Shown here piece after piece: positions 1 through 61,785 of a DNA stretch of 62,095 nucleotides. The stretch is from a virus (taxonomy: Duplodnaviria; Caudoviricetes): IMG/VR virus record IMGVR_UViG_3300030427_000031, positions 1 through 62,095 of that record, one strand, 5' to 3'. The notes below the pieces were generated by a model, which was not told the origin of the DNA, did not search any database, and saw nothing but the letters and a program-made list of their open reading frames with translations. Each line of letters opens with the position of its first letter. Position 1 is the first letter of the stretch. Position numbers and translations under genes: made by a program.

Positions 1-237
1 GACGCGGTGCTGCTGGACCCACCCCGCAAAGGCGCCCGCCCGGAGGTTCTGGAAGCCGTGTCAGCCATGGGTCCCGCCCGGGTGGTCTATATCTCCTGCG
101 ACCCCGGCACCATGTCCAGAGACCTGGGCCTGCTGGCGGCCAAAGGTTACCGGGTGGAAGAGGTTCAGCCGGTGGACATGTTTCCGTGGACCCACCATGT
201 TGAGACTGTTGTCTTGATGTCACGCAAAGATAAATAA
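1..237 (+). CDS. rlmD: 3' end of 23S rRNA (uracil-C5)-methyltransferase RlmD/RumA (partial; last codons supplied by the prophage)
   Basis: Motifs DPPRKG, YISCDPGT and VDMFPWTHHVETV typical of the TrmA/RumA family; GC-rich compared with the downstream DNA. Confidence 0.93.
   Translation, partial: DAVLLDPPRKGARPEVLEAVSAMGPARVVYISCDPGTMSRDLGLLAAKGYRVEEVQPVDMFPWTHHVETVVLMSRKDK
172..222 (+). repeat. attL
   Basis: CCATGTTGAGACTGT at 195-209 matches CCATGTGGAGACAGT at 57227-57241; TGATGTCA (215-222) is the inverse of TGACATCA (57203-57210). Confidence 0.85.
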
Positions 238-48235: not shown

Positions 48236-48273
48236 TGTTGATTGATATGTTCCCTCGGAAAGAGGTCGAGAGA

Positions 48274-48489
48274 ATGAAATTAACAAAATTAGAAGCCGTT
48301 GAATCCATAAAGTATGAAGCAGAAAAGCCTACAGAGGCTTCACTTAAAAATGAGCACGATTATTTGGTGGCAGAAAAACTTACAAAAAAGCTCTTAGAAA
48401 AGGGTCTTATTAGCCAGAGTGAATTTGACAAGATCATGGCCAAAAACCGCGAAACTTTCTCTCCGTTTTTAGCGGAGATTATGGCCTAA
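48274..48489 (+). CDS. SHOCT-like small protein
   Basis: LLEKGLISQSEFDKI. Confidence 0.7.
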   Translation: MKLTKLEAVESIKYEAEKPTEASLKNEHDYLVAEKLTKKLLEKGLISQSEFDKIMAKNRETFSPFLAEIMA

Positions 48490-48551: not shown

Positions 48552-50111
48552 ATGAAACGAATAACAAAGATTGAAGCAAATGAGAAACTGCAGAAGGCAC
48601 CTAAAAAACTGCGTGTTGCTGCCTACGCTCGTGTTTCAACAGATAGTCGCGAACAACTCGTCAGTTTGGATGCTCAAAGAAGTCATTATGAGACCTGCAT
48701 TAAGAGCAATCCCGACTGGGAGTATGTCGGACTTTACTATGATGAAGGCATATCCGGTACAAGCATGGCCAAGCGTGATGCACTTCTAAAAATGCTCGAT
48801 GATTGTGAAGCCGGTAAGATTGACTTTATTATTATCAAATCCATCAGCCGCTTTGCAAGAAATACCACAGAGTGCCTTGAAGCGGTTAGAAAGCTTATAA
48901 AGCTAAAAGTGTTCATTTACTTTGAGAAAGAAAACATCAACACCGGCGATATGGAGAATGAACTGCTGCTTACGATTTTTAGCAGCTTGGCAGAAAGTGA
49001 GTCTATTTCCCTTTCGGAGAATGAAAAATGGTCCATCGAGAAGAGATTTCAAAACGGAACATACATTGTTGCCTCTCCGCCTTACGGGTACAAAAACGAA
49101 GATGGCTTGATGGTGATCAATGAAGATGAGGTTGATGTAGTAAGGTACATTTTTGCAGAATGTTTAGCTGGTAAAGGCGGTCATGTAATCGCTAGAGATC
49201 TTAATGATAAAGGAATCCCAACCAGGCGAAAAAGAGAATGGACTCCGGGCACAGTAAATGCGATCCTTCGAAATGAAAAGTACAAAGGTGATGTGCTTTT
49301 TCAAAAAACATTTACCGATGAGACTTTCGTTAGGCATATCAATAATGGTGAGAAGGCGCAGTACTACGTTACTGAGCATCACGAAGCGATAATCAGTGTT
49401 GAGGATTTTGAAGCGGCGCAGGCCATGATTGACCAGCGCTCCAAAGACATGAAAATCAAGCAAGGCGATGCAAAGTATCAAAACCGCTATCCCTTTTCTG
49501 GAAAAATTGTTTGCGGCGAATGTGGTGCTACATGGAAAAGGAGAACTCATAGCGAATCGAAAATAAAATATTACGCTTATGCTTGCAACACACATCTTAA
49601 GAAAAAAGACCAATGTAGCATGCAGTTTATACGCGAAAAGAGTTTTGAAGTGGCTTTTTTGAATATGATCAATAAGTTGGCATTTACTAAGAAGGTGTTG
49701 TTGCAGCCGCTACTTACAAGTCTTAAAGCCATTAACCAGGAAGCAGCAATCGCCCGAATTAATAAGTTGGAAGCGGCTCTTGAGGCCAATTTCAACAAAA
49801 GGCAGCAGCTTATGAATTTATTTGCAAAGGAATATTTAGAGCCAGCTGTTTTCAACGATCAGAATTCAGGTCTTCTTGCTGAGGCTAAAAATTTAAGTGA
49901 TGAAAAAGAAGCCCTATATGCTTCGGTGAATCATGAGTACGAGCATGTTGAAGCTTTGAATAAACTCATCAAGTACGTCAACAGCTCAAGGATTTTTTCT
50001 GAATTTGATGTTGATGCATTTGAGGAGCATGTTGATTACATTATCGTTTTCAAAAGATATGAAATAGGTTTCGTATTAAAGTGTGGATTAACGCTAAGAG
50101 AAAGGTTGTGA
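48552..50111 (+). CDS. Large serine recombinase 1
   Basis: [25 protein letters not shown], zinc ribbon CGECG. Confidence 0.92.
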   Translation: MKRITKIEANEKLQKAPKKLRVAAYARVSTDSREQLVSLDAQRSHYETCIKSNPDWEYVGLYYDEGISGTSMAKRDALLKMLDDCEAGKIDFIIIKSISRFARNTTECLEAVRKLIKLKVFIYFEKENINTGDMENELLLTIFSSLAESESISLSENEKWSIEKRFQNGTYIVASPPYGYKNEDGLMVINEDEVDVVRYIFAECLAGKGGHVIARDLNDKGIPTRRKREWTPGTVNAILRNEKYKGDVLFQKTFTDETFVRHINNGEKAQYYVTEHHEAIISVEDFEAAQAMIDQRSKDMKIKQGDAKYQNRYPFSGKIVCGECGATWKRRTHSESKIKYYAYACNTHLKKKDQCSMQFIREKSFEVAFLNMINKLAFTKKVLLQPLLTSLKAINQEAAIARINKLEAALEANFNKRQQLMNLFAKEYLEPAVFNDQNSGLLAEAKNLSDEKEALYASVNHEYEHVEALNKLIKYVNSSRIFSEFDVDAFEEHVDYIIVFKRYEIGFVLKCGLTLRERL

Positions 50112-50115
50112 GATT

Positions 50116-50532
50116 ATGCCAATTCCATATGGGTACAAAATTGAGAAAGGCAAAGCTGTTATAGATGAAGCTCAAGCCGAGCAGGTTAGGATGATTTACA
50201 AAGGTTATCTTTCCGGCCTCGCCTACGTTGCTGCAGCAGAGGCCGCTGGGCTTACGATTCTACATCCAGGTGTAAAGAAAATGCTACAAAATAAACGCTA
50301 CCTTGGTGATAAATACTATCCTGCGATCATCGATCAGGAGACTTTTGATAGAGCTGAAGCAGAACGAATCAAACGTCAAAGAAGGCTTGGTAGAGTATTT
50401 GCGGATAAGCCGGTAGAGGAATGCAAGCCAGCGACAAAATTTACTATGCCGAAAGCAGGAAAGATTTTCATTGACCCATTTAAGCAGGCGGAGTACATCT
50501 ACAGCTTGATAGAAAGTGAGGTGGAGGTATGA
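50116..50532 (+). CDS. Recombinase DNA-binding-domain-only protein
   Basis: IPYGY...N.RYLG...YPAIID...F; no catalytic domain. Confidence 0.8.
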
Positions 50533-52103
50533 TCTCCTTAGCGAGTAATGTAACGGTTATTCCAGCAAAGAAAACCATCGGGACACAGAAAGCAACCGAC
50601 AAAAAGCAGAAAACCAGAGTCGCAGCATACTGTCGTGTCAGTACTGACAGCGATGAGCAAGAAACCAGCTATGAAGCCCAGATCCAGCATTACACCTCAT
50701 ACATTGAAAGTCATCCGGATTGGGTACTAGCCGGAATTTATGCCGATGATGGCATCTCTGGAATGAATACGAAGAAGCGTGATGAGTTCCAGCACATGAT
50801 TAACGACTGCAATGACGGCAAGATAGATATGGTGATTACCAAGTCCATCAGCCGGTTTGCAAGGAATACGGTGGATTGCCTGAATTACACCAGAGCCCTT
50901 AAGAATAAGAACATTGGCGTCTATTTCGAGAAAGAAAATATTAATACGCTCGATGCTAAGGGTGAAGTGCTCATGACAATTATGGCTTCTCTTGCACAGC
51001 AAGAAAGTGAGTCATTGTCGGCCAACGTTCGTCTGGGCTTGCAGTTCCGATACCAACAAGGAAAAGTTCAGGTCAATCACAACTGGTTCTTGGGATATAC
51101 CAAAGATGCAGACGGTCACCTCATCATTGATCCAGAGCAAGCCGAAGTCGTGAAGCGCATTTATAGAGAGTACCTTTCCGGTAAGAGCTTCTTACAGATA
51201 AAAAGGTCTCTTGAGGCCGACGGTATTCTAAACGGTGCGGGTAATGAAAAATGGCATGAAAGTAATATAAAGCAGATACTTACGAACGAGAAGTACATCG
51301 GAGACGCTTTGCTCCAGAAGACTTATACGGTGGATATTCTTGAAAAGAAGCGTGAAGCTAATAAGGGTCAGGTTCCTAAATATTATGTAGAGGACAGCCA
51401 TGAAGCTATTATTCCAAAGGATATCTTCCTAAAGGTACAGGAGGAAATCGCACGACGCGCAAATCTTACTAAAGGCACCACAAAGCGCAAACGAATCTAT
51501 AGTGGCCGTTACGCTTTATCTGGAATAGTTTTCTGCGCATACTGTGGCGACATCTTCCGCAGAATTAAATGGAACAATCGCGGGTGTAAGTCCACCGTTT
51601 GGCGCTGTGTCAGCAGAGTTGAAAAAGACGGCCCTGATTGCCCGGCAAGAACTGTTCACGAGAAATTGCTTCAGGAGGTAGTTATCAAGGCTATAAACGA
51701 AGCGTTCCGTGAAAAGGAAGCAATCCTGCCACTTTTACGAGAGAATATCGAGAGTAGCCTTGAGGAAGTCACCTCAAATCAGATTGCAGCGATTGATGAA
51801 CAAATGAAGTCAATGCAGCAGGAGCTAATGGCAACCGTTAATTCAAAGAATACCGGTGATGAGCTTGGTCTGGAGATTAGGAGGCTGCGCGATGAGAAGC
51901 AGGCCCTACAAAATGAGCAGGCATCCCGTCAGGATCTGAAAAAGCGAATTGATGATTTGATGCGTTTTCTTAACGACCTGCCTTGTGAGCTGATTGAATA
52001 TGAAGAAGATTATGTGAGGACTCTCCTGGAAAAGATAACGGTTTACGACGACCACATCATAGTTGAATTTAAGTCCGGAATTGAAATCCAAATTGACGAA
52101 TAA
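50529..52103 (+). CDS. Large serine recombinase 2
   Basis: [26 protein letters not shown]...WRC. Confidence 0.92.
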
Positions 52104-52120
52104 CTAAGTAATGCTAAATC

Positions 52121-52151
52121 ACCCGCAGCTCTTGTCAGAGTTGCGGGTTTC
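52121..52151 (+). terminator. Terminator after the recombinases
   Basis: ACCCGCAGCTCT-N4-AGAGTTGCGGGT. Confidence 0.75.
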
Positions 52152-52238
52152 GTTGTTTATAAAACAATTAATGTGTAAATATTGTAAATTGAAACCAAAT
52201 GGTTTACAATGTTCCTATTGAGGTTTGGAGGAATTATA

Positions 52239-52463
52239 ATGAAAACTTCGGACATGATACGACAGCTTTGTGAACAAATGAACATGAGCGTTTCCGAATT
52301 GGCTAGGCGGTTAGGCCAGTCCCCACAGAACTTCGGGAAGAAGCTAAAGCGTGAGACTATTACATTAGAAGAACTTAAGGCCATAGCAGATGTGATGAAT
52401 GTTAAGTTTGAGCAGACTTTCATTCTGCCCGATGGCAATGAAATAAAGACAGGAAATGAGTAA
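52239..52463 (+). CDS. XRE-family HTH regulator
   Basis: SVSELARRLGQSPQNF..KL; palindromes upstream (ATTGTAAA..TTTACAAT). Confidence 0.85.
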   Translation: MKTSDMIRQLCEQMNMSVSELARRLGQSPQNFGKKLKRETITLEELKAIADVMNVKFEQTFILPDGNEIKTGNE

Positions 52464-52478
52464 AGGAGGCGGCCTAAC

Positions 52479-53159
52479 ATGATGATTAGCCCGGAAGGAT
52501 ACTATGAAGAGCATCTTAAAGGAAAAAATAAAGAACAGATTCTGACCGTTATACGTGGGCTTAAGCAAGAAATAGGTCGTCTTAAGAATACAATGGAAAG
52601 CCCCGACTATGGCGTAAAACCTATTATGCATCCGAGTGAAGATACACGCCTTCACTGGACTCGTGAATATTTGGAAATAGCCAAGCAAGCCTTTGCTGAA
52701 GCTGGTGGAACTTATACCTTAACAAAGTCAGAAAAAAAGGTTGCTGACTTTGATGCAAATATGGATGCCATCTGCAAGATTACCTTTAGCATTGGCGGTT
52801 TCTTTGGTGGCTACCGTAGTTATGTTGTAGAACTATCAGATGAATTGAAAGCCTATACAAAATTATGGGATGATGAAGAACCACTCTTATTGTTGGATGG
52901 TGATAACGAGGAGTCATTTACAAAGGACACTTTTATAGCCGCACTTAGGGATCTTCACATCGGTGAATGGCTCAGACGATATTCAACTAAGCGTTTCGGA
53001 TACACGGTGTGTGATGGTACACAGTGGGAGTTGGAATTTGAATATAGCAATGGCCATAAACCGGTAAGATTTGATGGTGATAACTCATACCCGTATAACT
53101 TCGATAAGTTCCAGATGTTATTTGGCATTGATGAAACTGAGGAGGACGAGGATGAGTAG
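52479..53159 (+). CDS. Hypothetical protein
   Basis: 226-aa ORF with strong RBS; DGTQWELEF...G.NSYP.NF motif. Confidence 0.7.
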   Translation: MMISPEGYYEEHLKGKNKEQILTVIRGLKQEIGRLKNTMESPDYGVKPIMHPSEDTRLHWTREYLEIAKQAFAEAGGTYTLTKSEKKVADFDANMDAICKITFSIGGFFGGYRSYVVELSDELKAYTKLWDDEEPLLLLDGDNEESFTKDTFIAALRDLHIGEWLRRYSTKRFGYTVCDGTQWELEFEYSNGHKPVRFDGDNSYPYNFDKFQMLFGIDETEEDEDE

Positions 53160-53562
53160 ATTTGATATTTTGGTGAAATACATACCTATAATTCAGGCGG
53201 ATGGCATCGGTGAATGGGTTGTTGATAAAGAAAACGATGGAACACCGGAACATCCGATACAGATGCCTTTTGTAGATTATTCCGAAATGGTACATAACTT
53301 TATCGATGATGTTTATGCCTTTGAAGAAAGCAATAAAGATATGGAGCTTACCCGTTATGGAGATATTCTCAAAGATAACGGACTTGAATGGGATTCAGAA
53401 TCTATGGAAAATGCTGATGTTTCAAACTTGAACGCACAGTGTGTTCTTGCACTGATTATGGGTGCAGTAAGAGCTGAGCGTTTTTGCGATGGTGCATTAT
53501 TAGATTTCTTCAAGAATGGCTGCATATTGAAGTGGCTTGAAAGATTAAACAGTATTGAGTAA
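53152..53562 (+). CDS. DUF6508-like protein
   Basis: RAERFCDG.L.....G.I.KWL.RL. Confidence 0.65.
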   Translation: MSRFDILVKYIPIIQADGIGEWVVDKENDGTPEHPIQMPFVDYSEMVHNFIDDVYAFEESNKDMELTRYGDILKDNGLEWDSESMENADVSNLNAQCVLALIMGAVRAERFCDGALLDFFKNGCILKWLERLNSIE

Positions 53563-53575
53563 AGGAGGTTTGACT

Positions 53576-55201
53576 TTGGATATTAACAAAATTAAAGCTC
53601 TACCGTATGATGAACTGCGTGCTTTATATAAGAACTTCCTACATAGCCAGAACATTTCGATAGCAACAATCAATACTGCTTATGTGGACACCTTCTACCT
53701 TTGGAGGAAAGGAAGCAAAGATCTGTTCTGGAATGCGGTGAACGCTACTGATTTTGAGACTGAAGCAAAGAGTGCATTGATAAAAGCTCTTTCTGAGAAC
53801 TCGACCGGTAATGTCAATTCACTTGTTAGTGGTTACTTGTCTCATCTAAGAAGGTTCCGCTTGTTTCTATCGTCAGATGAAACCATTGCTCCGGTTGAAT
53901 ATAAACAAAAAACCGCAGTAAAAGTAAAGCCAACACATATGAGCCGTGAAATAATAATTAACAAAATGTATGTTGGAGCATATTTGTCAGAGGGCGATAA
54001 TATAGGTCATGAAATCATAAATCTCTATAAGGCAGATGATGGGAAAAACTATATTTATCTCAATTCACAAGGAACAATAGAATTATCTCATGGAGAAAAT
54101 AGAATAACTATTCTGTTGGTACGAAAATTTGCCTCGAAAACATATAAAGTACTAGCCAAGGCAGAGGGGGTTACAATTCTTGATTTTGCCGACAGCAAAC
54201 TTCCGCGAGAAGAGAGATATAAAGGACAAGTTGCATTAGGACTGACCTATGGCGGAATAAGTCTTGTAGATTTATTTAATGAAAACTCGTATCATGGAAG
54301 TCTTCAAGAAGAAAAGAATGCTTATACTACCTTTGTTGCAGATAAGGTTATCAAGCCCAAAAATCAGATATATATTACAGATGATGCATCTGTAAGTGGT
54401 GACAACACTTATTTCATCCGTACTAATAAAGGATTTGGCAAACAAACATTAAGGGAATTCTACAACGAAAATGAAAAGCCGGATTCTTTCGCTGATTTGA
54501 ATCAGATAATTGAAAACAGAGAGTTGTGGGAAGATGCTAATACGACACAAGCAATTTCTGAATTGCCGGAACTTCAAAAAGATCCGTATTTCAATTTCCT
54601 AAAAATAATCAGGCAGGAAGACAATGAACTCGCTTTTTCAAATATGTTAGCTTACTTTTTTGATATAAACAGAGAAGCTTTTTCCCGTTTTGCAAGAGAG
54701 GTTCTAAATATAGAGGTACAAACAGATTTTACTATTGAGAGAGAAAAGAGAAACATTGACCTACTTATTTCTGACAAAAATAATGCCGTTGTAATAGAAA
54801 ATAAAATCAAATCGAGCATCAATGGTATTGATGACCGACATGATATCTACAGTGACCAAGTACAGTCACAGCTAAAAAAATACTATCAATTTGTTACATC
54901 TGATGATGAGTATCGCAATAAAACAGCGAGCTGCTTTATTTTTTCACCTAATTACAATCGCATTGACCTAAGTAAGTTTTCGTGCGGTGAAAAATATACT
55001 ATTGTTTATTACAGAGAAATCTATAATTTCTTTGTTGAGAACAGAAGCCGGTATGATGGGGTGCTTTACTTTGATGATTTCATTAAAGCAATGTATAAGC
55101 ACACCAAGGACTACGACAATGATTTAGAGGAAGAAATGCAAAGAAGATTTCAAAATACTATTTGCAATGCGAAAAAGGGGTATGGAGGCCATCAATTATG
55201 A
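53576..55201 (+). CDS. Multidomain protein with C-terminal PD-(D/E)XK nuclease
   Basis: ERE.RNIDLLI...VIENKI...QL.KY; TTG start after AAGGAGG. Confidence 0.75.
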   Translation: MDINKIKALPYDELRALYKNFLHSQNISIATINTAYVDTFYLWRKGSKDLFWNAVNATDFETEAKSALIKALSENSTGNVNSLVSGYLSHLRRFRLFLSSDETIAPVEYKQKTAVKVKPTHMSREIIINKMYVGAYLSEGDNIGHEIINLYKADDGKNYIYLNSQGTIELSHGENRITILLVRKFASKTYKVLAKAEGVTILDFADSKLPREERYKGQVALGLTYGGISLVDLFNENSYHGSLQEEKNAYTTFVADKVIKPKNQIYITDDASVSGDNTYFIRTNKGFGKQTLREFYNENEKPDSFADLNQIIENRELWEDANTTQAISELPELQKDPYFNFLKIIRQEDNELAFSNMLAYFFDINREAFSRFAREVLNIEVQTDFTIEREKRNIDLLISDKNNAVVIENKIKSSINGIDDRHDIYSDQVQSQLKKYYQFVTSDDEYRNKTASCFIFSPNYNRIDLSKFSCGEKYTIVYYREIYNFFVENRSRYDGVLYFDDFIKAMYKHTKDYDNDLEEEMQRRFQNTICNAKKGYGGHQL

Positions 55202-56211
55202 AGATACATTATTTCCAAAGATACCATGAGAAAGAAAATGTAGCTACAGCTAATACAATGCTGTTGTTATCTCGTTTATATCAATATTCTTCTGATAAGT
55301 TCTTTCGGTTTTTGAAATCGGAATTCTTCTCTGATTCCTTTGAACCGGAAATTGCATTTAACTTACAAGAGAAAAGTGTTGATAGTATCCCTGACGCAAC
55401 CATTACTCAGGAGAGCTTCAAGATTGTAGTTGAGACAAAGATGTCCGACTGGTTTTATTCCGATCAACTTATGAGGCATCTGAATTCCTTTAGTGGTGAA
55501 AAGTATAAGGTAATGATTACTCTAGCACCAGAACTGATGGCAGAAGACAAAAAAGAGACCTTTGAAAAGCAACTCAAAGAATATAATGCTACACAAGACC
55601 ATCCGGTTATCCACATAAATACTACCTTTGAAGGCATTGCAAATGCAATTCAAGAGGTTATCGATGATAAGGATTATGATATGCAAGAAGTACTCGATGA
55701 CTACCTAAATTATTGCTATAACGATGGTCTTATTGCGGTATCTGACTCATGGAAATACATGAGAATGCAGCTTGCAGGTACAACACTTGATTTCAATATT
55801 AGCGAAGACATATACTATGATAATGCTGAACGTGGTTTTAGAGCACATGATTATTTGAGTTTATATAAAAATAAGAGTGTACGTGCAGTGGGTAAAGTCA
55901 GCGCTAGAATTACAGCAATTGAAACCGAAAACGGTATGCAATATGAAGCTGAATTTGGCGATTTAACTGATCAAAGAAAAGAAAAAATTCTCAAGGCTAT
56001 CGCAGACGGTGATGAACATGGCTATGATTTAAGAACAATTAAGCACCGGTATTTCTTTGTGGAAAAATTCTATGAGACGGATTTTAGAAAGATAACGCCT
56101 CGAGCACCAATGGGTACACGAGTATTTGACTTATCACAAGTTTTAGAGACAGAGCATCTGCCTGATACTCAGGGAATAGCAGAGTTGCTTAAAACAAAGA
56201 CATGGAGTTAA
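55198..56211 (+). CDS. PD-(D/E)XK nuclease-domain protein
   Basis: EN..T, PDATI...VVETK...QL.RH. Confidence 0.7.
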   Translation: MKIHYFQRYHEKENVATANTMLLLSRLYQYSSDKFFRFLKSEFFSDSFEPEIAFNLQEKSVDSIPDATITQESFKIVVETKMSDWFYSDQLMRHLNSFSGEKYKVMITLAPELMAEDKKETFEKQLKEYNATQDHPVIHINTTFEGIANAIQEVIDDKDYDMQEVLDDYLNYCYNDGLIAVSDSWKYMRMQLAGTTLDFNISEDIYYDNAERGFRAHDYLSLYKNKSVRAVGKVSARITAIETENGMQYEAEFGDLTDQRKEKILKAIADGDEHGYDLRTIKHRYFFVEKFYETDFRKITPRAPMGTRVFDLSQVLETEHLPDTQGIAELLKTKTWS

Positions 56212-56229
56212 TAGATGGGAGGATATAAG

Positions 56230-56499
56230 ATGGCTAATTCAAAAGTTCCTGTTGCTACAGCGATTCCTCTATCCCCGATGGATGGAGAGGATTTTTATGC
56301 AGTTATTACTCAGGAAGAAAGAAGTAAGAAAAAGTGGAATTTAATGTGGTTGTTCCGAAAAGGATGTGGAGTGGCACACTTTTGCGTGGAGACAAGCGCA
56401 GATAATGATGATGGTACCATGACACCAGATGGAATTAAAGCTTTGGATGCTATAGGGCGTTTTGATGAAAACAAAGAAATGCTCCTCGAGGAAAACTAA
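56230..56499 (+). CDS. Hypothetical protein
   Basis: ORF with GGAGG RBS, coupled to the next gene (TAATG). Confidence 0.55.
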   Translation: MANSKVPVATAIPLSPMDGEDFYAVITQEERSKKKWNLMWLFRKGCGVAHFCVETSADNDDGTMTPDGIKALDAIGRFDENKEMLLEEN

Positions 56500-57095
56500 T
56501 GGCTAAAAGAGATCGTTATGATGTTCTAGTTATACTTACAAATAATGCGGCTCTCATATGGAAAGAAGCTCGTGGGATAGCACCGGATTCGGCAGCCGAT
56601 AAGCTGGACGATGCTATGCTCGAATGGCAAAGCAAATTGACAAAAACATTAAAAATTTGGATTGATAAAGGTCTCACAATGACTACAGGTGAGCTGATTC
56701 TTGCACGTGCAAATCTTGGTGCAGTCGTTGAGTCATGGCTTAAATTCTTTTACTGTGTTTACTATGAGGATTATTGTAAGAGCCCGATTACAAATAACAA
56801 AGGCAAAATGATAGAGCCGGAAAAAGCTTCGTTCGATAATCTTAAAGACTTTAGTAGTGGAAAGCTATGGGATGATGTAAATTCACCGGAGTACGCTTGG
56901 GTTGATTCTGTTCAGCATAAAAGGAATGCAATTCATTCGTTCAGATATAGAGATATTGGAACTTCACTAGAATTTTTGGATGACATTGATCATCTTTATA
57001 ATTTTGTAGAAAATGTGCTTTCACATTTTCCACCACTTGAGGATTATATCGAGGCATATCCACCTGGTTATGTGATGAATCCATATTCTAATTGA
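56499..57095 (+). CDS. Helical protein, possible HEPN-like RNase
   Basis: LGAVVESWL helix and KRNAIH motif. Confidence 0.5.
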   Translation: MAKRDRYDVLVILTNNAALIWKEARGIAPDSAADKLDDAMLEWQSKLTKTLKIWIDKGLTMTTGELILARANLGAVVESWLKFFYCVYYEDYCKSPITNNKGKMIEPEKASFDNLKDFSSGKLWDDVNSPEYAWVDSVQHKRNAIHSFRYRDIGTSLEFLDDIDHLYNFVENVLSHFPPLEDYIEAYPPGYVMNPYSN

Positions 57096-57179
57096 TATGT
57101 TCCCACGAACAGTAAAACCGTTGATATATTTCCACATACCTCGAAAATGCTAAAAAACGGTTGACCTGTTTCCACTAAC
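57092..57179 (+). repeat. Three degenerate copies of the rlmD attB left half-site
   Basis: TTGATATGTTCCCACGAAC, TTGATATATTTCCACATAC, TTGACCTGTTTCCACTAAC versus host TGGACATGTTTCCGTGGAC. Confidence 0.7.
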
Positions 57180-57200
57180 GTATGGTTCAAAATTTCAGCG

Positions 57201-57278
57201 GTTGACATCATTTAGGCTAACTCGGCCCATGTGGAGACAGTGTGTCTGTTATCCAGTAAAATCAAGGGTTTGAAGTAA
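57201..57278 (+). repeat. attR with displaced rlmD 3' end (HVETVCLLSSKIKGLK*)
   Basis: 57228-57278 translates as an alternative RlmD C-terminus. Confidence 0.85.
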
Positions 57279-57327: not shown

Positions 57328-58563
57328 TTACTTGGTAGGCAAATTATGATTGACTGCTTTTTCAAATATATCAACTGACTGTTCAGCCATTTTTTCAGTT
57401 GAATGTGTGTATGTTCCAAGGGTGGTTTCAATATTGGCATGACCAAGCCTGTCTTGAACATCCTTAATGTTTGCACCATTTTCAATCAGGGTGGTTGCGT
57501 GGGTATGGCGCAATGAATGAAAGTTGAACAGTATACCCAAGCTATAATGAATCACCCTGGCAGCATATTTGAAGGTGTCAGGTGTTATCATGTCACCATC
57601 TTCTTTGGTGCAAACCATTTGAATTGGTTTTATGATACCAGCATCAATTGAAAGTGACAGTGAATAAATCCTTCTTAATTTTTCATTCCCATTCAATTCT
57701 TCAACTTCATATTGCTGAATGAAGTGCTGACCATATTTCAATCTGTTTTCCAGTTGCCATTTCTTATGCTGCTTCAAAGCTAAAATTAATGTTTTACCAA
57801 TCTTGATGGTTCTTACTGATGATTCTGTTTTAGTAGAACCAAAATACCAGTCCGGTTTGCGCTTATAAATGAGTTTGTTAATATTAACAGTTCCTTTTTC
57901 AAGGTCAATATCATCCCATGTCAAACCCATGACTTCACCAATTCTGCATCCAGTATAATATCCAATCATCAGCGCAATATGAAAAGTTGTTCCGGCTGGA
58001 AATCTTGAAATTATCTTTTCAAAGTCATCTTTTGAAATAACCTTGTGGTCAATTTCAAGTTTTGAATGTTCATATTTTGGGTACTTCACATATTGCATGG
58101 GATTATCCTTGATGAACTTGCATGGATGCACAGCATATTTTATTGACCCACTTAAAACAGTCATGATGTTGGTCAAATGATGTTTACTAAAGCCGCTTAA
58201 ATATTTTCCATTGATAAATTCCTGAAGGATTGCGGGTGTCAATGACTTCAGCTTGTAAATTCCCAATGCTGGTTTAATATGATTCCTGATGATAATTTCA
58301 TAACCAGTTTGGGTGTTGTATTTACAATTAAGCAACACATAGTTCTTCATCCAATAATCCATATAATCTGATACTGAAATTTCAGTTGGTTCAAAATGTA
58401 ACCCGGCATTGTTGTACTCTTGAAGTGCAACCCTCAAAGCAGCTTCAGCTTCCTTCTTTGTTCTTCCTCCAACACGTTCAATTCTTTTCCTTTTTCCATC
58501 CACATTGGATGCTTCAAAGGAAAAATACCACTTGTCACCACGTTTTCTTACATGACCTTCCAT
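57328..58563 (-). CDS. int: Tyrosine integrase
   Basis: Arm-binding N-terminus (GHVRKRGDKW), TGCRIGE, HSLRHT, LGH...T..TY. Confidence 0.93.
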   Translation of the reverse strand: MEGHVRKRGDKWYFSFEASNVDGKRKRIERVGGRTKKEAEAALRVALQEYNNAGLHFEPTEISVSDYMDYWMKNYVLLNCKYNTQTGYEIIIRNHIKPALGIYKLKSLTPAILQEFINGKYLSGFSKHHLTNIMTVLSGSIKYAVHPCKFIKDNPMQYVKYPKYEHSKLEIDHKVISKDDFEKIISRFPAGTTFHIALMIGYYTGCRIGEVMGLTWDDIDLEKGTVNINKLIYKRKPDWYFGSTKTESSVRTIKIGKTLILALKQHKKWQLENRLKYGQHFIQQYEVEELNGNEKLRRIYSLSLSIDAGIIKPIQMVCTKEDGDMITPDTFKYAARVIHYSLGILFNFHSLRHTHATTLIENGANIKDVQDRLGHANIETTLGTYTHSTEKMAEQSVDIFEKAVNHNLPTK

Positions 58564-58592
58564 AATAACTTCATCCTTTCTTTTATTTTTTA

Positions 58593-58854
58593 GTTCAAGA
58601 TGGTTCAAGATGAATTGTTTTATCTTGAACTGCTTTAAAGCCTTTATATATAAGGTTTTTTTCAATATCAGTTCAAGTTCAAGATTGTTTTTTCTTCTAT
58701 ACATTATTTCTTAAGGATATATAAACATTTTTAATGTAATTTTAAAAATGTTTAATAAAATATCAATTCATCTTGAACCATCTTGAACTTTCCCATAAAT
58801 ACAAGGTTTTCATCTTGAACCACAATCTTGAACCATCTTGAACTTATCTTGAAC
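58593..58854. repeat. Array of ten GTTCAAGA/TCTTGAAC octamers around an AT-rich core
   Basis: GTTCAAGA at 58593, 58603, 58677; TCTTGAAC at 58623, 58771, 58781, 58813, 58826, 58836, 58847. Confidence 0.85.
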
Positions 58855-58858
58855 TAAA

Positions 58859-59197
58859 TTATTTTAATTCAACAAGTATGTATTTCTTGATGTACTGAAT
58901 CCACTTATTAATCCCTTCAATATAATCATGAAGTTCACCTTTGATGTTTTGACTATCATATAAATTTTTCATTATCATCATCCACTTTGTTCTGCCTTGT
59001 AATTTTATTTTTCCAATAGGATATGAAGCATAATCAACATTGATTGTTCCATCTGACAACCTTGTAAATTTAAATACTGCTTTTAACCCGCTTTCTTCTA
59101 TCTTCATTTTAAGAGCATTAAAAAACATAATTTCATCTTCAATAACTTCATAAGTTTTTCTTGGATTAGTTGAATTTTGTGCAATTTTAAATTCCAT
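58859..59197 (-). CDS. Hypothetical protein (lysogeny-region accessory)
   Basis: ORF from MEFKIAQ with AAAGGA RBS. Confidence 0.6.
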   Translation of the reverse strand: MEFKIAQNSTNPRKTYEVIEDEIMFFNALKMKIEESGLKAVFKFTRLSDGTINVDYASYPIGKIKLQGRTKWMMIMKNLYDSQNIKGELHDYIEGINKWIQYIKKYILVELK

Positions 59198-59214
59198 TTT
59201 ATCAATCCTTTCAG

Positions 59215-59610
59215 TTACAACGTATATTCTGATGGTGCTGCACAGTGCATGACTTCTTCCCTGAAATTTAAGACCTGATTCATTGTCTTTGCGCTTACAT
59301 CCCAAAAGGCAAGATGTTTTGGTTCACCTGCTGAAGATGTGTACTTAAATACATAATAAAACTTTGTTCCAGCTTTACTGGTAGTTCCTGCGGTATTGTG
59401 GTACTGAACCAGGAAATTATTTTCAGGCATTGCATCAATAGAAATCACTTGATTAAATGGCAGCTTCACTATAAGGTCAGGGTTTATTTTCTTGATAACC
59501 AGTGCATCATTTTCCAGAATAATGGTGCAAGGGAAATCCTGAATGAATCCCGGCAATCCTTCATAATACATAACATTCAAAGTGTTAGTTTCTTTTTTCT
59601 TTCCAAACAT
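59215..59610 (-). CDS. Hypothetical protein (lysogeny-region accessory)
   Basis: ORF co-oriented with and directly after the repressor. Confidence 0.6.
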   Translation of the reverse strand: MFGKKKETNTLNVMYYEGLPGFIQDFPCTIILENDALVIKKINPDLIVKLPFNQVISIDAMPENNFLVQYHNTAGTTSKAGTKFYYVFKYTSSAGEPKHLAFWDVSAKTMNQVLNFREEVMHCAAPSEYTL

Positions 59611-59627
59611 AAACACACTTCCTTTCT

Positions 59628-60263
59628 TTAAAATACATTACTTTGAAATGCAATTGCTTTTCCTAAAATTCTGACATAATTAAGTTCTTCGTTTTTATAA
59701 ACCATAGGCTTATAAGCTGAATTTTCAGCAACCAAAATGATTTCATTTTCTTTTTTATATACTCTTTTCAGGGTTGCTTCATCTTCAATTAAAACAGCGG
59801 CAATTTGACCATCTTCAACATCAGATTGCTTCCTGATAAAAACAATATCACCATCACAGATTCTTGCATTTACCATGCTGTCACCCTGAATCTTCAAACA
59901 AAAATCAGCCTGAATATTTGTACCAGCTTCAACATAACTTTCAAATTGTTCATCAGCAAAAATTGGTACACCAGCAGCAATTGTTCCCAGCAAAGGGAAC
60001 TTTTTTGTTTCAATCTTTAAAATGTTATCAGGGTATTTGGTAGATGTTCTTTCCATTGGCACATCATAACCCATTAACCAGGATTCACTTACATCTAAGG
60101 CTTTTGCAATCAAATAAATTCCCTTTTGTTTTGGTTCATACTTCCCGGAATAATATTGGCTTATTGCTGATTTTCCAAGACCAGTTTTTTCAACCAAGTC
60201 AGCTTGTTTCATATCTCTAATATCCATAGCTTTTCTCATCCGGCTTGCAAAAGAATCTTTCAT
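59628..60263 (-). CDS. CI-like repressor, XRE HTH plus S24 peptidase
   Basis: QADL...G..KSAISQY, IAAG cleavage site, GDSM, ATLKR. Confidence 0.92.
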   Translation of the reverse strand: MKDSFASRMRKAMDIRDMKQADLVEKTGLGKSAISQYYSGKYEPKQKGIYLIAKALDVSESWLMGYDVPMERTSTKYPDNILKIETKKFPLLGTIAAGVPIFADEQFESYVEAGTNIQADFCLKIQGDSMVNARICDGDIVFIRKQSDVEDGQIAAVLIEDEATLKRVYKKENEIILVAENSAYKPMVYKNEELNYVRILGKAIAFQSNVF

Positions 60264-60367
60264 TAATACACACCCTTCCATAATTAACCTTATTCAATAT
60301 TATACAGAAAAGTTCAATTTATTACAACAGGATTTGAAAAATAGTTAAGAAAACTGAAAAAAATATA

Positions 60368-60854: not shown

Positions 60855-61785
60855 CATATTAACTTATTGTTGATGGAACAAACACTTTCTGTTAGAATAT
60901 GGCAGGAGGTGTTTTTTCTTTGGTCAGGCGGGCTCGAGTGGAGTATCCGGGTGCTATATACCACGTCATACAGCGGGGAAATAACAAGGAGGACGTGTTT
61001 GAAAGTCCGGAAAAGAAAGACTATCTTATCAATCTTCTCAGTAAATCCGTGGCGGTGAATGGCGTTGAATTATATGCCTACGTGGTAATGAGCAATCACT
61101 ACCACCTCGCCCTCAGAACATGCAGAGAAACGTTGAGTAAAGTAATGCACCGGCTAAATACAGGATACGGCATTTATTACAACCGACAAATGAAAAGGAC
61201 CGGACACGTTTTTCAGGGAAGATATAAAGCCATACCCGTGCTGGACGAGAGCTATCTCATGGTATTGGTGAAATATATTCACCTAAACCCGGTGAGGGCT
61301 GGTATTTGTAACGACTTACGTAACTATCCCTGGTCCGGCGACGGTTGCTACCGGACAACGGAATCCGGCATAGTGGAGACTGGATTTTTACTGGACATGT
61401 TATCCAAGGACAGAAAAAAGTCTTATGCAAAATATAATCTGCTATTGGGTCAAGAGTATGATCCAGGCACAATAGAATTGATTACAGCAGAAAACAAAAA
61501 CACAGAGGGCCAGATTGAACCTCAAAAGGTTACCGGCGGCAGAAAATCACTAAACGAAATACTAAAAGAAACAGGCATCAAACAGGAGGAATTAGAACAA
61601 ATAAAAAGGGGGTCCAGGCTGAGAAGGTTTTCTCCGGTTAAGACAGTATATGCAAAATCCGCATGGGAGCACGGTTATTCACTAAAAGAAATAGCCTGCC
61701 ACATTGGAGTCTCTTCTGTGGCTGTGTTCAAGTATATTAACAAGACGATCAGCAAGCAATAAGTTAACAAGTTAAGGGACAGGCC
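60841..61785. mobile_element. Y1/HUH transposase element bounded by 29-bp inverted repeats
   Basis: GGCCTGTCCCTTAACATATTAACTTATTG (60841-60869) and its inverse at 61757-61785, 2 mismatches. Confidence 0.8.
60920..61762 (+). CDS. RAYT/IS200-like Y1 transposase with C-terminal HTH
   Basis: YHVIQRGNN, MSNHYHL (HUH), GHVFQGRY, YIHLNPVRAG, YPWS. Confidence 0.9.
   Translation: MVRRARVEYPGAIYHVIQRGNNKEDVFESPEKKDYLINLLSKSVAVNGVELYAYVVMSNHYHLALRTCRETLSKVMHRLNTGYGIYYNRQMKRTGHVFQGRYKAIPVLDESYLMVLVKYIHLNPVRAGICNDLRNYPWSGDGCYRTTESGIVETGFLLDMLSKDRKKSYAKYNLLLGQEYDPGTIELITAENKNTEGQIEPQKVTGGRKSLNEILKETGIKQEELEQIKRGSRLRRFSPVKTVYAKSAWEHGYSLKEIACHIGVSSVAVFKYINKTISKQ

Follow-up and report, generated by a model that had tools for sequence, protein, structure and literature searches.

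Conserved attB-like half-site repeats beside the attachment site of an rlmD-integrated phage: a widespread variant of large serine recombinase site architecture with putative function

RESULTS

The prophage and its recombinase module

The window (the whole stretch of DNA that was analysed, 62,095 nt; G000:C31:5806-67900) carries a siphovirus-like prophage that lies within the 3′ end of rlmD and encodes an amidase, a holin and a Sipho_Gp37-family tail protein. Its extent is placed at about 196 to 57229, because the 5′ part of rlmD ends at 234 and the displaced rlmD end follows the repeat array described below. Along the window, the lysis genes are succeeded by the recombinase module, ∼5 kb of cargo and the array. 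The module and cargo are as follows.

48274..48489, + strand: small SHOCT-domain protein (PF20612, E 3.8e-16), first gene of the recombinase module; start codon reassigned
48552..50111, + strand: large serine recombinase 1 (LSR1), with Resolvase, Recombinase and Zn_ribbon_recom domains and the catalytic motif YARVSTDS
50116..50532, + strand: 138-aa protein with part of the Recombinase DNA-binding domain only (PF07508, E 3.5e-5)
50529..52103, + strand: large serine recombinase 2 (LSR2), with Resolvase, Recombinase and zinc-ribbon domains and the catalytic motif YCRVSTDS
52104..57095, + strand: variable cargo (DUF6508, PD-(D/E)XK nuclease, unnamed ORFs), which differs among relatives right up to copy 1 of the array

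LSR1 and LSR2 (520 and 524 aa) each combine an N-terminal resolvase catalytic domain bearing the serine with Recombinase and zinc-ribbon domains, and both have the C-terminal domains of LSRs. An earlier note on this DNA had counted three recombinase proteins, but only two are full LSRs with a catalytic serine motif; the third is the 138-aa partial-domain protein, which is kept in G011, G017 and G213. Directly downstream of the element lies a second prophage with a tyrosine integrase (57328-58704, minus strand) and an S24-type repressor. As this integrase belongs to the neighbouring prophage, on the far side of the rlmD remnant, it is not the element's own.

Attachment sites

The 5′ part of rlmD extends into the window, reads VDMFPWTHHVETVVLMSRKDK and ends at 234. 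The arms of the two attachment sites are assigned as follows.

175..195, + strand: B arm of attL, host rlmD coding for DMFPWTH, 21 nt from GACAT to the crossover; same register in the rlmD loci of relatives
196..197, + strand: CA, crossover dinucleotide at attL as deduced from junctions
198..237, + strand: P′ arm of attL (24 nt, 198-221) and phage replacement of the rlmD end, VETVVLMSRKDK, with the stop at 235-237
57204..57227, + strand: P arm of attR, 24 nt from GACAT to the crossover; outer GACATCA and inner CTCGGCC conserved, middle variable
57228..57229, + strand: CA, crossover dinucleotide at attR as deduced from junctions
57230..57278, + strand: B′ arm of attR, the displaced rlmD end HVETVCLLSSKIKGLK, with the stop at 57276-57278; a similar rlmD end is found in G043 (L218)

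That the sequence from 57202 onward is an attP arm, as the earlier note had it, is borne out on two counts. Relatives have the stretch from copy 1 through the arm at 57202 in common and then continue into divergent rlmD 3′ ends, so that the arm is the P arm of the phage, and in two metagenome contigs (L271 and L272) P is joined to P′ in an intact attP. The P′ sequence also follows the P arm in L188, and the attL of G033 (L195) is the same. From GAYAT to CA, the host left arm counts 21 nt, and P and the reverse complement of P′ count 24 nt each. The deduced attP (P + CA + P′) measures ∼52 bp, with an 8-bp outer inverted repeat around the central dinucleotide, and has the make-up of an LSR attP, i.e. 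an imperfect inverted repeat of ∼50 bp with a central dinucleotide and no long identity to attB. Between attP and attB, the left arms are different, whereas the right arms are almost alike in sequence, since the rlmD end is replaced by P′. As P′ brings a replacement C-terminus and a stop codon, rlmD is kept open after integration.

The position of the crossover is inferred from two regularities. Nearly all P arms in the printed junctions end in CCA and then diverge, including those joined to non-rlmD DNA (exceptions are L003, L102/L110 and L127), and CA precedes YGT in all 29 host rlmD left arms read; for these reasons the crossover is placed at CA. Exchange at GA, as in streptococcal elements, was rejected, given that P arms joined to non-rlmD DNA diverge right after CCA, although at the rlmD junctions themselves a GA crossover a few bases beyond CA could still have occurred.

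Three attB-like half-sites upstream of the P arm

Just upstream of the attR P arm are three direct repeats, each consisting of the core TKGAYNTNTTYCC followed by N4-AC.

57092..57110, + strand: copy 1 (u1), mimic of the attB left arm
57121..57139, + strand: copy 2 (u2), mimic of the attB left arm
57161..57179, + strand: copy 3 (u3), mimic of the attB left arm; the copy most widely kept among relatives

In agreement with the earlier description, the starts of the copies and the next TTGAC (57202) are spaced by 29, 40 and 41 bp, the copies read (I)DMFPRT, VDIFPHT and VDLFPLT, mimicking the VDMFPxT of rlmD that forms the attB left arm, and the last cargo ORF (56499-57095) ends within copy 1 with a TGA at 57093-57095. 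All copies are oriented as the P arm and lie within 140 bp of the crossover site. Similarity to rlmD stops after position 19, and the crossover position (22-23 after GAYAT) is occupied by AA, AA and GG rather than CA. A coding role for the array was rejected, as the spacings break the frame and each VDMFPxT frame meets a stop.

The earlier note had raised the concern that matches of this quality might be common in background DNA. A degenerate 15-mer finds three exact matches, all at the array, and TKGAYNTNTTYCC matches exactly 37 times on both strands of the 4.1-Mb assembly. Of these 37 matches, the 62-kb window has six (the three array copies and those at 173, 16765 and 48242), each on the + strand, whereas 200 Markov-simulated windows contain a mean of 0.41 core matches and none of the 200 contains a same-strand pair within 60 bp. 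Chance is excluded as the origin of the array.

A role unconnected with recombination, as a promoter, a terminator, a small RNA or the sites of another protein such as a repressor, is very unlikely. The cores begin with TTGAC or TTGAT and thereby resemble a -35 box, one promoter-like match begins at 57121, and the spacers between the copies are A-rich. Yet promoter-like matches stand at background (four found versus 3.0 expected) and no terminators were found, so that a promoter or terminator was rejected; furthermore, the match to the attB arm runs over 19 nt, far beyond a -35 hexamer. RNA candidates fared no better: the array folds no better than shuffled sequence (z = -0.16), and Rfam yields one match only, an unrelated microRNA model that falls outside the array (E 0.55; score 19.8 bits, threshold 76). 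The company that the cores keep also speaks against such roles. A scan of contigs for the P-arm pattern returned at least 120 stretches that are mostly noise, with true att arms in nine of those listed. In a comparison of P-pattern matches with cores, the motif always went with a P arm: the 11 matches that have a core at most 140 bp upstream all look like real att arms, and the other 130 have no core there.

Inheritance and conservation of the copies

Eight elements were aligned (the window, L003, L156, L180, G033, G026, G035 and G055), and all eight have three copies with spacings of 29-30 and 40-41. Two copies are present in L055 and L147, a 24-bp deletion having taken the core of copy 1 in L055, and only the copy closest to the P arm is retained in L010, L127, L135, L102/L110 and L188; across elements, anything between one copy and three or more is found. 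Copy 3 and the P arm are 41 apart in six of eight arrays and 20 apart in L186 and L187, and with other P-arm variants the copy-to-P distance is about 34 or 43-44. As both copy number and the distance between copy 3 and P vary, strict phasing is not kept.

Homology among relatives starts at copy 1, and the cargo upstream is unrelated (mean pairwise identity 0.38). Within the array, the nearest neighbour of 21 of 24 copies is the equally ranked copy of another element, across different host genera, and the mean identity over 22 nt is 0.79 for copies of the same rank in different arrays versus 0.68 for copies of different ranks in one array. On these comparisons, the array is old and inherited. 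The two contigs with an intact attP, L271 and L272, each have one copy followed by P, CA, P′ and then a left end homologous to 225-400 of the window, and hence at least one copy travels with the phage.

The cores of copies 1, 2 and 3 have mean pairwise identities of 0.88, 0.92 and 0.88, compared with 0.86, 0.81 and 0.46 for the outer, inner and middle parts of the P arm, 0.66-0.75 for the six bases after each core and 0.60-0.72 for the spacers. Taken together, the 39 core columns average 0.90 versus 0.68 in the other 71 array columns (Mann-Whitney p = 4.5e-6), a test that counts columns as independent. With related sequences and an alignment anchored on the repeats, the conservation statistics overstate independence. 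The earlier note had allowed that relatives might show no conservation; instead, the cores are conserved to the level of the functional parts of the P arm and above the spacers. In a logo of 78 distinct copies, positions that were no part of the search are conserved as well (A18 0.99, C19 0.94, G8 0.79 and A24 0.83). Conservation falls on the first and second codon positions of V-D-M-F-P-x-T, whose bases are constant across rlmD alleles.

The earlier note had also entertained that the copies are scars of attB, each being the left arm taken from a previous host, so that the array would form a record of host history, and had proposed that the copies be matched to rlmD alleles across relatives. 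This reading retains its appeal in that the copies keep the VDMFPxT reading, with variation at third codon positions and at residue x, and in that rlmD-type alleles with H at residue x do exist (G164). The comparison went against it, however. Of 30 rlmD loci fetched from the order 29 could be read, and all 29 have TGG after FP, whereas TGG occurs in 0 of 78 copies, so that the copies are not a record of recent hosts; the rank orthology, which spans host genera, points the same way, and CA is absent from the window copies. The same pattern of variation would be expected if the sites fit a recombinase that tolerates synonymous change, and no LSR reaction seems derivable that would put a B arm upstream of P. 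We therefore consider a host record extremely unlikely, more so even than a role outside recombination. A related precedent is the tandem accretion at tRNA genes, which leaves target-derived repeats at the element end that comprise the whole identity segment and differ between lineages. The array resembles such scars in having target-derived repeats at one element end, at a hotspot, but its copies lack the crossover core, the arm not being kept through it, do not differ by host lineage, are orthologous by rank across lineages and form part of the free phage genome (L271, L272).

Recurrence across genomes and metagenomes

Genomes were searched for two copies separated by a gap of 14-30, with the same pattern read backwards as the control. 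The pair pattern is present in 13 of 103 genomes of the order (control 2/103), in 13 of 112 genomes of the class, where the nine genomes added contain no new arrays, and in 18 of 401 genomes (18/271 genera) of an even sample of the phylum (control 1/401). In most printed arrays a P arm comes next, in one of several sequence variants, and an rlmD end often follows; L264, with a different tandem repeat, and L253, where the contig ends, are exceptions. Contigs from four metagenome runs match only 57113-57192, with differing flanks that include other P-arm variants, and in run X8 the depth spikes over this interval (87-145 versus 3-14). Runs X1 and X6 are possibly where the DNA of the window comes from, and so give no independent support. 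The runs are represented by assembled contigs, in which rare variants are lost, and no excision or alternative joints were reported among them. A blastn search of 57085-57235 against 50,697 phage records returned no match.

In G000, G011, G017 and G213, all four of the contiguous genomes, 3-8 kb separate the array from the recombinase module upstream of it, LSR1 being split into two pieces in G017. Elsewhere, no LSR homologue was found in the 18 kb on the cargo side of the array locus in G183 or in the 13 kb searched in G073, and the whole genome of G055 has no LSR2 match at E 1e-50 or better. Near the array, G164 and G072 have LSR fragments only, and G415, with LSR genes that are fragmentary, distant or not found nearby, has 1.5 kb between its array and the left arm of rlmD. 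In G026, the stretch that should contain the recombinase genes is masked as N. As arrays persist where the LSR genes are in such a state, part of the array sample probably consists of remnants, or decaying DNA.

Junctions at the copies and nested insertions

In two unrelated genomes, G213 and L072, a P arm with its CA occupies the place of the middle copy of another array type, for which five intact arrays were compared, and homology to these five resumes immediately after CA; the fusion is located exactly at the predicted crossover of the copy. The P-arm variants at the two junctions differ, that of G213 being as in G017 and that of L072 as in the window, and the G213 element is a phage with a window-type module (LSR2 60% identity; one cargo protein 89%). 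A junction of this kind would be expected from recombination of an attP with a copy that stands in for the left arm of attB. Intact arrays of this other type have AA or GA at the crossover position. Given these dinucleotides, and the lack of CA in the window copies, strand exchange at the copies should be hindered. P-CA is succeeded in G026 and G073 by a copy in inverted orientation, placed precisely in the 21-nt attB register. The earlier suggestion that copies are entry points is thus upheld in part: it stands for whole elements, with a P arm fused to a copy in G213 and L072, but not for cargo, as the variable DNA is upstream of copy 1 and not where a crossover at the copy would place it.

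The copies might accordingly be thought to serve mainly as landing pads or decoys, i.e. secondary attB half-sites at which related elements are caught or their recombinases titrated, turning the locus into a growing nest. The two independent junctions at exactly the predicted crossover would be accounted for, rlmD is a known hotspot, and the repeats recur at 40-41 bp, as far apart as the two outer motifs of the rlmD attB, so that neighbouring copies imitate a full attB. We nevertheless judge this unlikely, as there is no evident gain for the carrier phage, the copies mostly lack the CA dinucleotide and copy-type junctions number only two among roughly 30 arrays inspected.

Of greater weight, although still rather doubtful in our estimate, is that the copies are functionless debris of old att duplications or nested rlmD integrations, carried along beside an indispensable P arm. 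Whole array-plus-P units are stacked in L072, L102/L110, G099 and G485, and such stacks or fossil P-CA junctions are common (the same genomes and contigs, G070 and G213); the attP region of the free phage itself has, upstream of its copy, a putative P-CA junction in degenerate form. The copies vary in number and spacing, copy 1 having been lost in L055, arrays survive in remnants devoid of recombinase genes, and tandem insertions at rumA are documented (PMC4120198, PMC11578063). Hitch-hiking, however, leaves unexplained why the cores (0.90) exceed the spacers (0.68) and are on a par with the functional parts of the P arm, as well as the near-invariant AC at 18-19 in 78 copies, and accretion at attL or attR gives P and P′ junctions, not copies of the attB left arm.

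A fourth copy in the leader of the recombinase operon

48242..48260, + strand: fourth copy of the attB-like motif, shortly before the ribosome-binding site in the untranslated leader of the recombinase operon

The earlier note had pointed out that a 13-mer of the array recurs at 48242, upstream of the recombinase module, and the recurrence is well above expectation (two matches at ≤3 mismatches versus 0.03 expected). The copy is present with 0-1 mismatch in 12 of 12 close relatives (L001-L012) and as a one-mismatch variant in G011, and is absent from G017 and G213. That it encodes a protein start (MFPRK...) was rejected, as its ATG is AGG in L008, L010, L011 and L012. Because this inner ATG is not a start codon and the first ATG of the operon is at 48274, the copy is assigned to the untranslated leader. 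A post-hoc estimate from the genome background rate of the core gives ∼1 in 1000 for a chance core on the right strand of a 200-bp leader. An autoregulatory role of this copy is possible, and is weakly suggested by these data.

DISCUSSION

The array is a real, conserved and widespread feature that, on the sequence evidence, represents a variant of LSR attachment-site architecture with a putative function. We put at about even the chance that the copies are attB-type half-sites recognised by recombinase, acting as accessory sites, as occasional secondary sites or as both. Of the four readings offered in the earlier note (accessory recombinase-binding sites, scars of earlier hosts, decoys and entry points), the first is the best supported, if only indirectly. 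It is favoured because the cores are conserved about as well as the P arm, because the copies recur beside several P-arm variants across the phylum and because AC at 18-19 is nearly invariant. The following course of events may be envisaged. The temperate siphovirus-like phage integrates into the 3′ end of rlmD by means of its two LSRs and the partial-domain protein. The attB left half-site is reproduced over its outer 19 nt in each motif. In our reading, the recombinase machinery would recognise the copies in its attB-binding mode, and the copies would serve as extra, non-crossover binding sites beside attP and attR by which synapsis or the direction of recombination is tuned. Occasionally, a copy may become the left half of a secondary attB for related elements. 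Protein binding, the protein that would be responsible and an effect on integration or excision are what we infer from these patterns.

Accessory sites next to a crossover site are well known in other recombination systems. Sites II and III of Tn3/gamma-delta res and site II of Sin are extra half-sites, bound by the recombinase, within ∼100 bp on one side of the crossover, arranged as direct repeats in Sin, and the enzymes that act on them are small resolvases that recombine two res sites in one molecule. The geometry of the array fits such accessory sites, with putative binding sites in the same orientation and within 140 bp, but a small resolvase or invertase is not what the module encodes, its two recombinases being proteins of 520 and 524 aa with LSR C-terminal domains. 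The arm-type and Xis sites of lambda-type attP are likewise direct repeats on the P arm that are kept in attR and set the direction of recombination; they are bound by a tyrosine integrase with a separate arm-binding domain and are unlike the core. In contrast, the repeats described here imitate the host half-site itself, and no tyrosine integrase acting at the att site was found among the element's own recombinases, which are serine-type. For large serine integrases, we know of no accessory subsites.

The target is shared with other elements. The rumA/rlmD gene is an established hotspot of serine-recombinase elements according to PMC4120198, PMC4701971 and PMC11578063, the last of which describes a Dehalobacter rumA island (Texts S4 and S6). 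The streptococcal and enterococcal rumA/rlmD elements (vanG elements, ICE-r and single-integrase ICEs) have the same target as the phage, i.e. the last 11-16 codons of the 23S rRNA uracil methyltransferase gene, and tandem insertions and hotspot behaviour are reported (PMC4120198, PMC4701971, PMC11578063). As they are described there, these elements are conjugative and have one integrase, whose gene spans the element end, whereas the present element is a phage with two LSRs located 5 kb from the end. The target dinucleotide of the streptococcal rumA elements is given as GA in PMC4120198, and is deduced as CA here. Imperfect terminal inverted repeats are mentioned for the streptococcal and enterococcal elements in the text at hand, but not attB-like arrays. 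In the full-text literature, chiefly the main texts of open-access papers, no account of attB-like repeat arrays beside an LSR attP was found.

Characterised serine integrases reportedly work on small sites, with no need of accessory DNA (PMC3783163, PMC1470463). The present system resembles the LSR sites of phiC31, Bxb1, A118/LI and SPbeta in its deduced attP of ∼52 bp with a central dinucleotide inside an 8-bp outer inverted repeat, and their enzymes in the Resolvase/Recombinase/zinc-ribbon domains. Whereas these known sites are minimal and without flanking DNA, one to three or more conserved extra half-sites of the attB type are found here upstream of P. Serine integrases owe their value in genome engineering to the view that two short sites suffice, without accessory DNA, and in known LSR systems it is a protein partner, the recombination directionality factor, that sets the direction. 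More broadly, and tentatively, LSRs may not always be minimal-site enzymes. There may be a widespread phage family whose attP is extended by attB-type half-sites, with a further one in the leader of the recombinase operon, to which the LSRs and the partial-domain protein would bind, thereby setting direction, regulating their own operon and making rlmD a self-renewing landing site; this is quite possible, although we would not bet on it. If true, a natural attP with conserved extra half-sites would constitute a further layer of control that acts through DNA sites, and there would be a concrete mechanism for rlmD/rumA as a nested hotspot, including for resistance-carrying elements in other bacteria. 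If the copies are inert, they illustrate that debris of the att region can persist for long periods. The order of attB-like core, spacer of roughly 20-45 bp and P arm provides a signature by which elements and their remnants may be delimited.

Two further differences from known LSR systems concern the module and the arms: two LSRs are accompanied by a small domain-only protein, and the right arms of attP and attB are nearly identical. Finally, the left arm of attB (21 nt) has its outer motif 3 bp nearer the centre than attP (24 nt) does, and in the published model of serine-integrase sites the zinc-domain motif is reportedly also nearer the centre in attB than in attP.

A second prophage adjoins the serine recombinase prophage

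In the window, the displaced rlmD stop codon is followed, after 50 bp, by the start of a second prophage:

57328-60281, minus strand, start of the second prophage, with a tyrosine integrase and an S24/HTH repressor

The tyrosine integrase is 458 aa long and has an arm-binding domain. As this prophage adjoins the one that carries the large serine recombinases, two elements with recombinases of different classes lie back to back at rlmD. Within the second prophage region, an ORF at 60899-61762 carries an IS200-like Y1 transposase domain (PF01797) and, at 287 aa, is above the usual length. At the other end of the window, the host flank (G000:C31:1-6040, which includes window positions 1-235) has a G+C content of 51-55% versus an assembly median of 39%, and the best match to the rlmD of this flank (64% identity) comes from a genome of another family, whereas genomes of its own family reach at most 57%. 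The contig may be mis-binned, or the host flank may be foreign. Three repeats of approximately GAACT-N0-2-TGTT (363-440) stand in noncoding DNA at the left end of the serine recombinase prophage; they have counterparts in both metagenome contigs that carry an intact attP (L271 and L272) and may serve as operators.

Probable remnants of attachment sites in related loci

A conserved 47-bp element lies ∼50 bp upstream of the attB-like copy (mimic of the attB left arm) nearest to the P arm in loci L010, L127, L135, L102/L110 and L072, as well as in L271/L272, such that the free attP contigs also carry it. The element contains an inverted rlmD 3′ end, that is, a half-site of the P′/B′ type, and we read the sequence that precedes it as a probable degenerate P-CA junction (CA being the deduced crossover dinucleotide). 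On the host side, locus L226 (G070) has a 42-bp insert between P-CA and the true rlmD end made up of a short rlmD-end relic together with the final bases of a B arm; this insert looks like a further layer of att debris. In L269 (G415:C1), only 1.5 kb separates the rlmD left arm from a full three-copy array and P arm; this locus is a miniature remnant with att sites on both flanks. In L189 (G026:C1:39990-48017), a run of 8,000 N coincides precisely with the place where a close relative would predict the recombinase genes.

Inverted attB-like copies were also observed. In L185 (G026) and L228 (G073), such a copy lies directly to the right of P-CA in the exact 21-nt register (the GAYAT-to-CA distance of the host attB left arm), resulting in a P-CA-inverted-B site. 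A lone inverted copy is found 150-190 bp past the rlmD stop codon in L234 (G017), L197 (G058), L259 (G495) and L270 (G164), where it sits just 3′ of the post-rlmD hairpin and T-run and is not part of any array.
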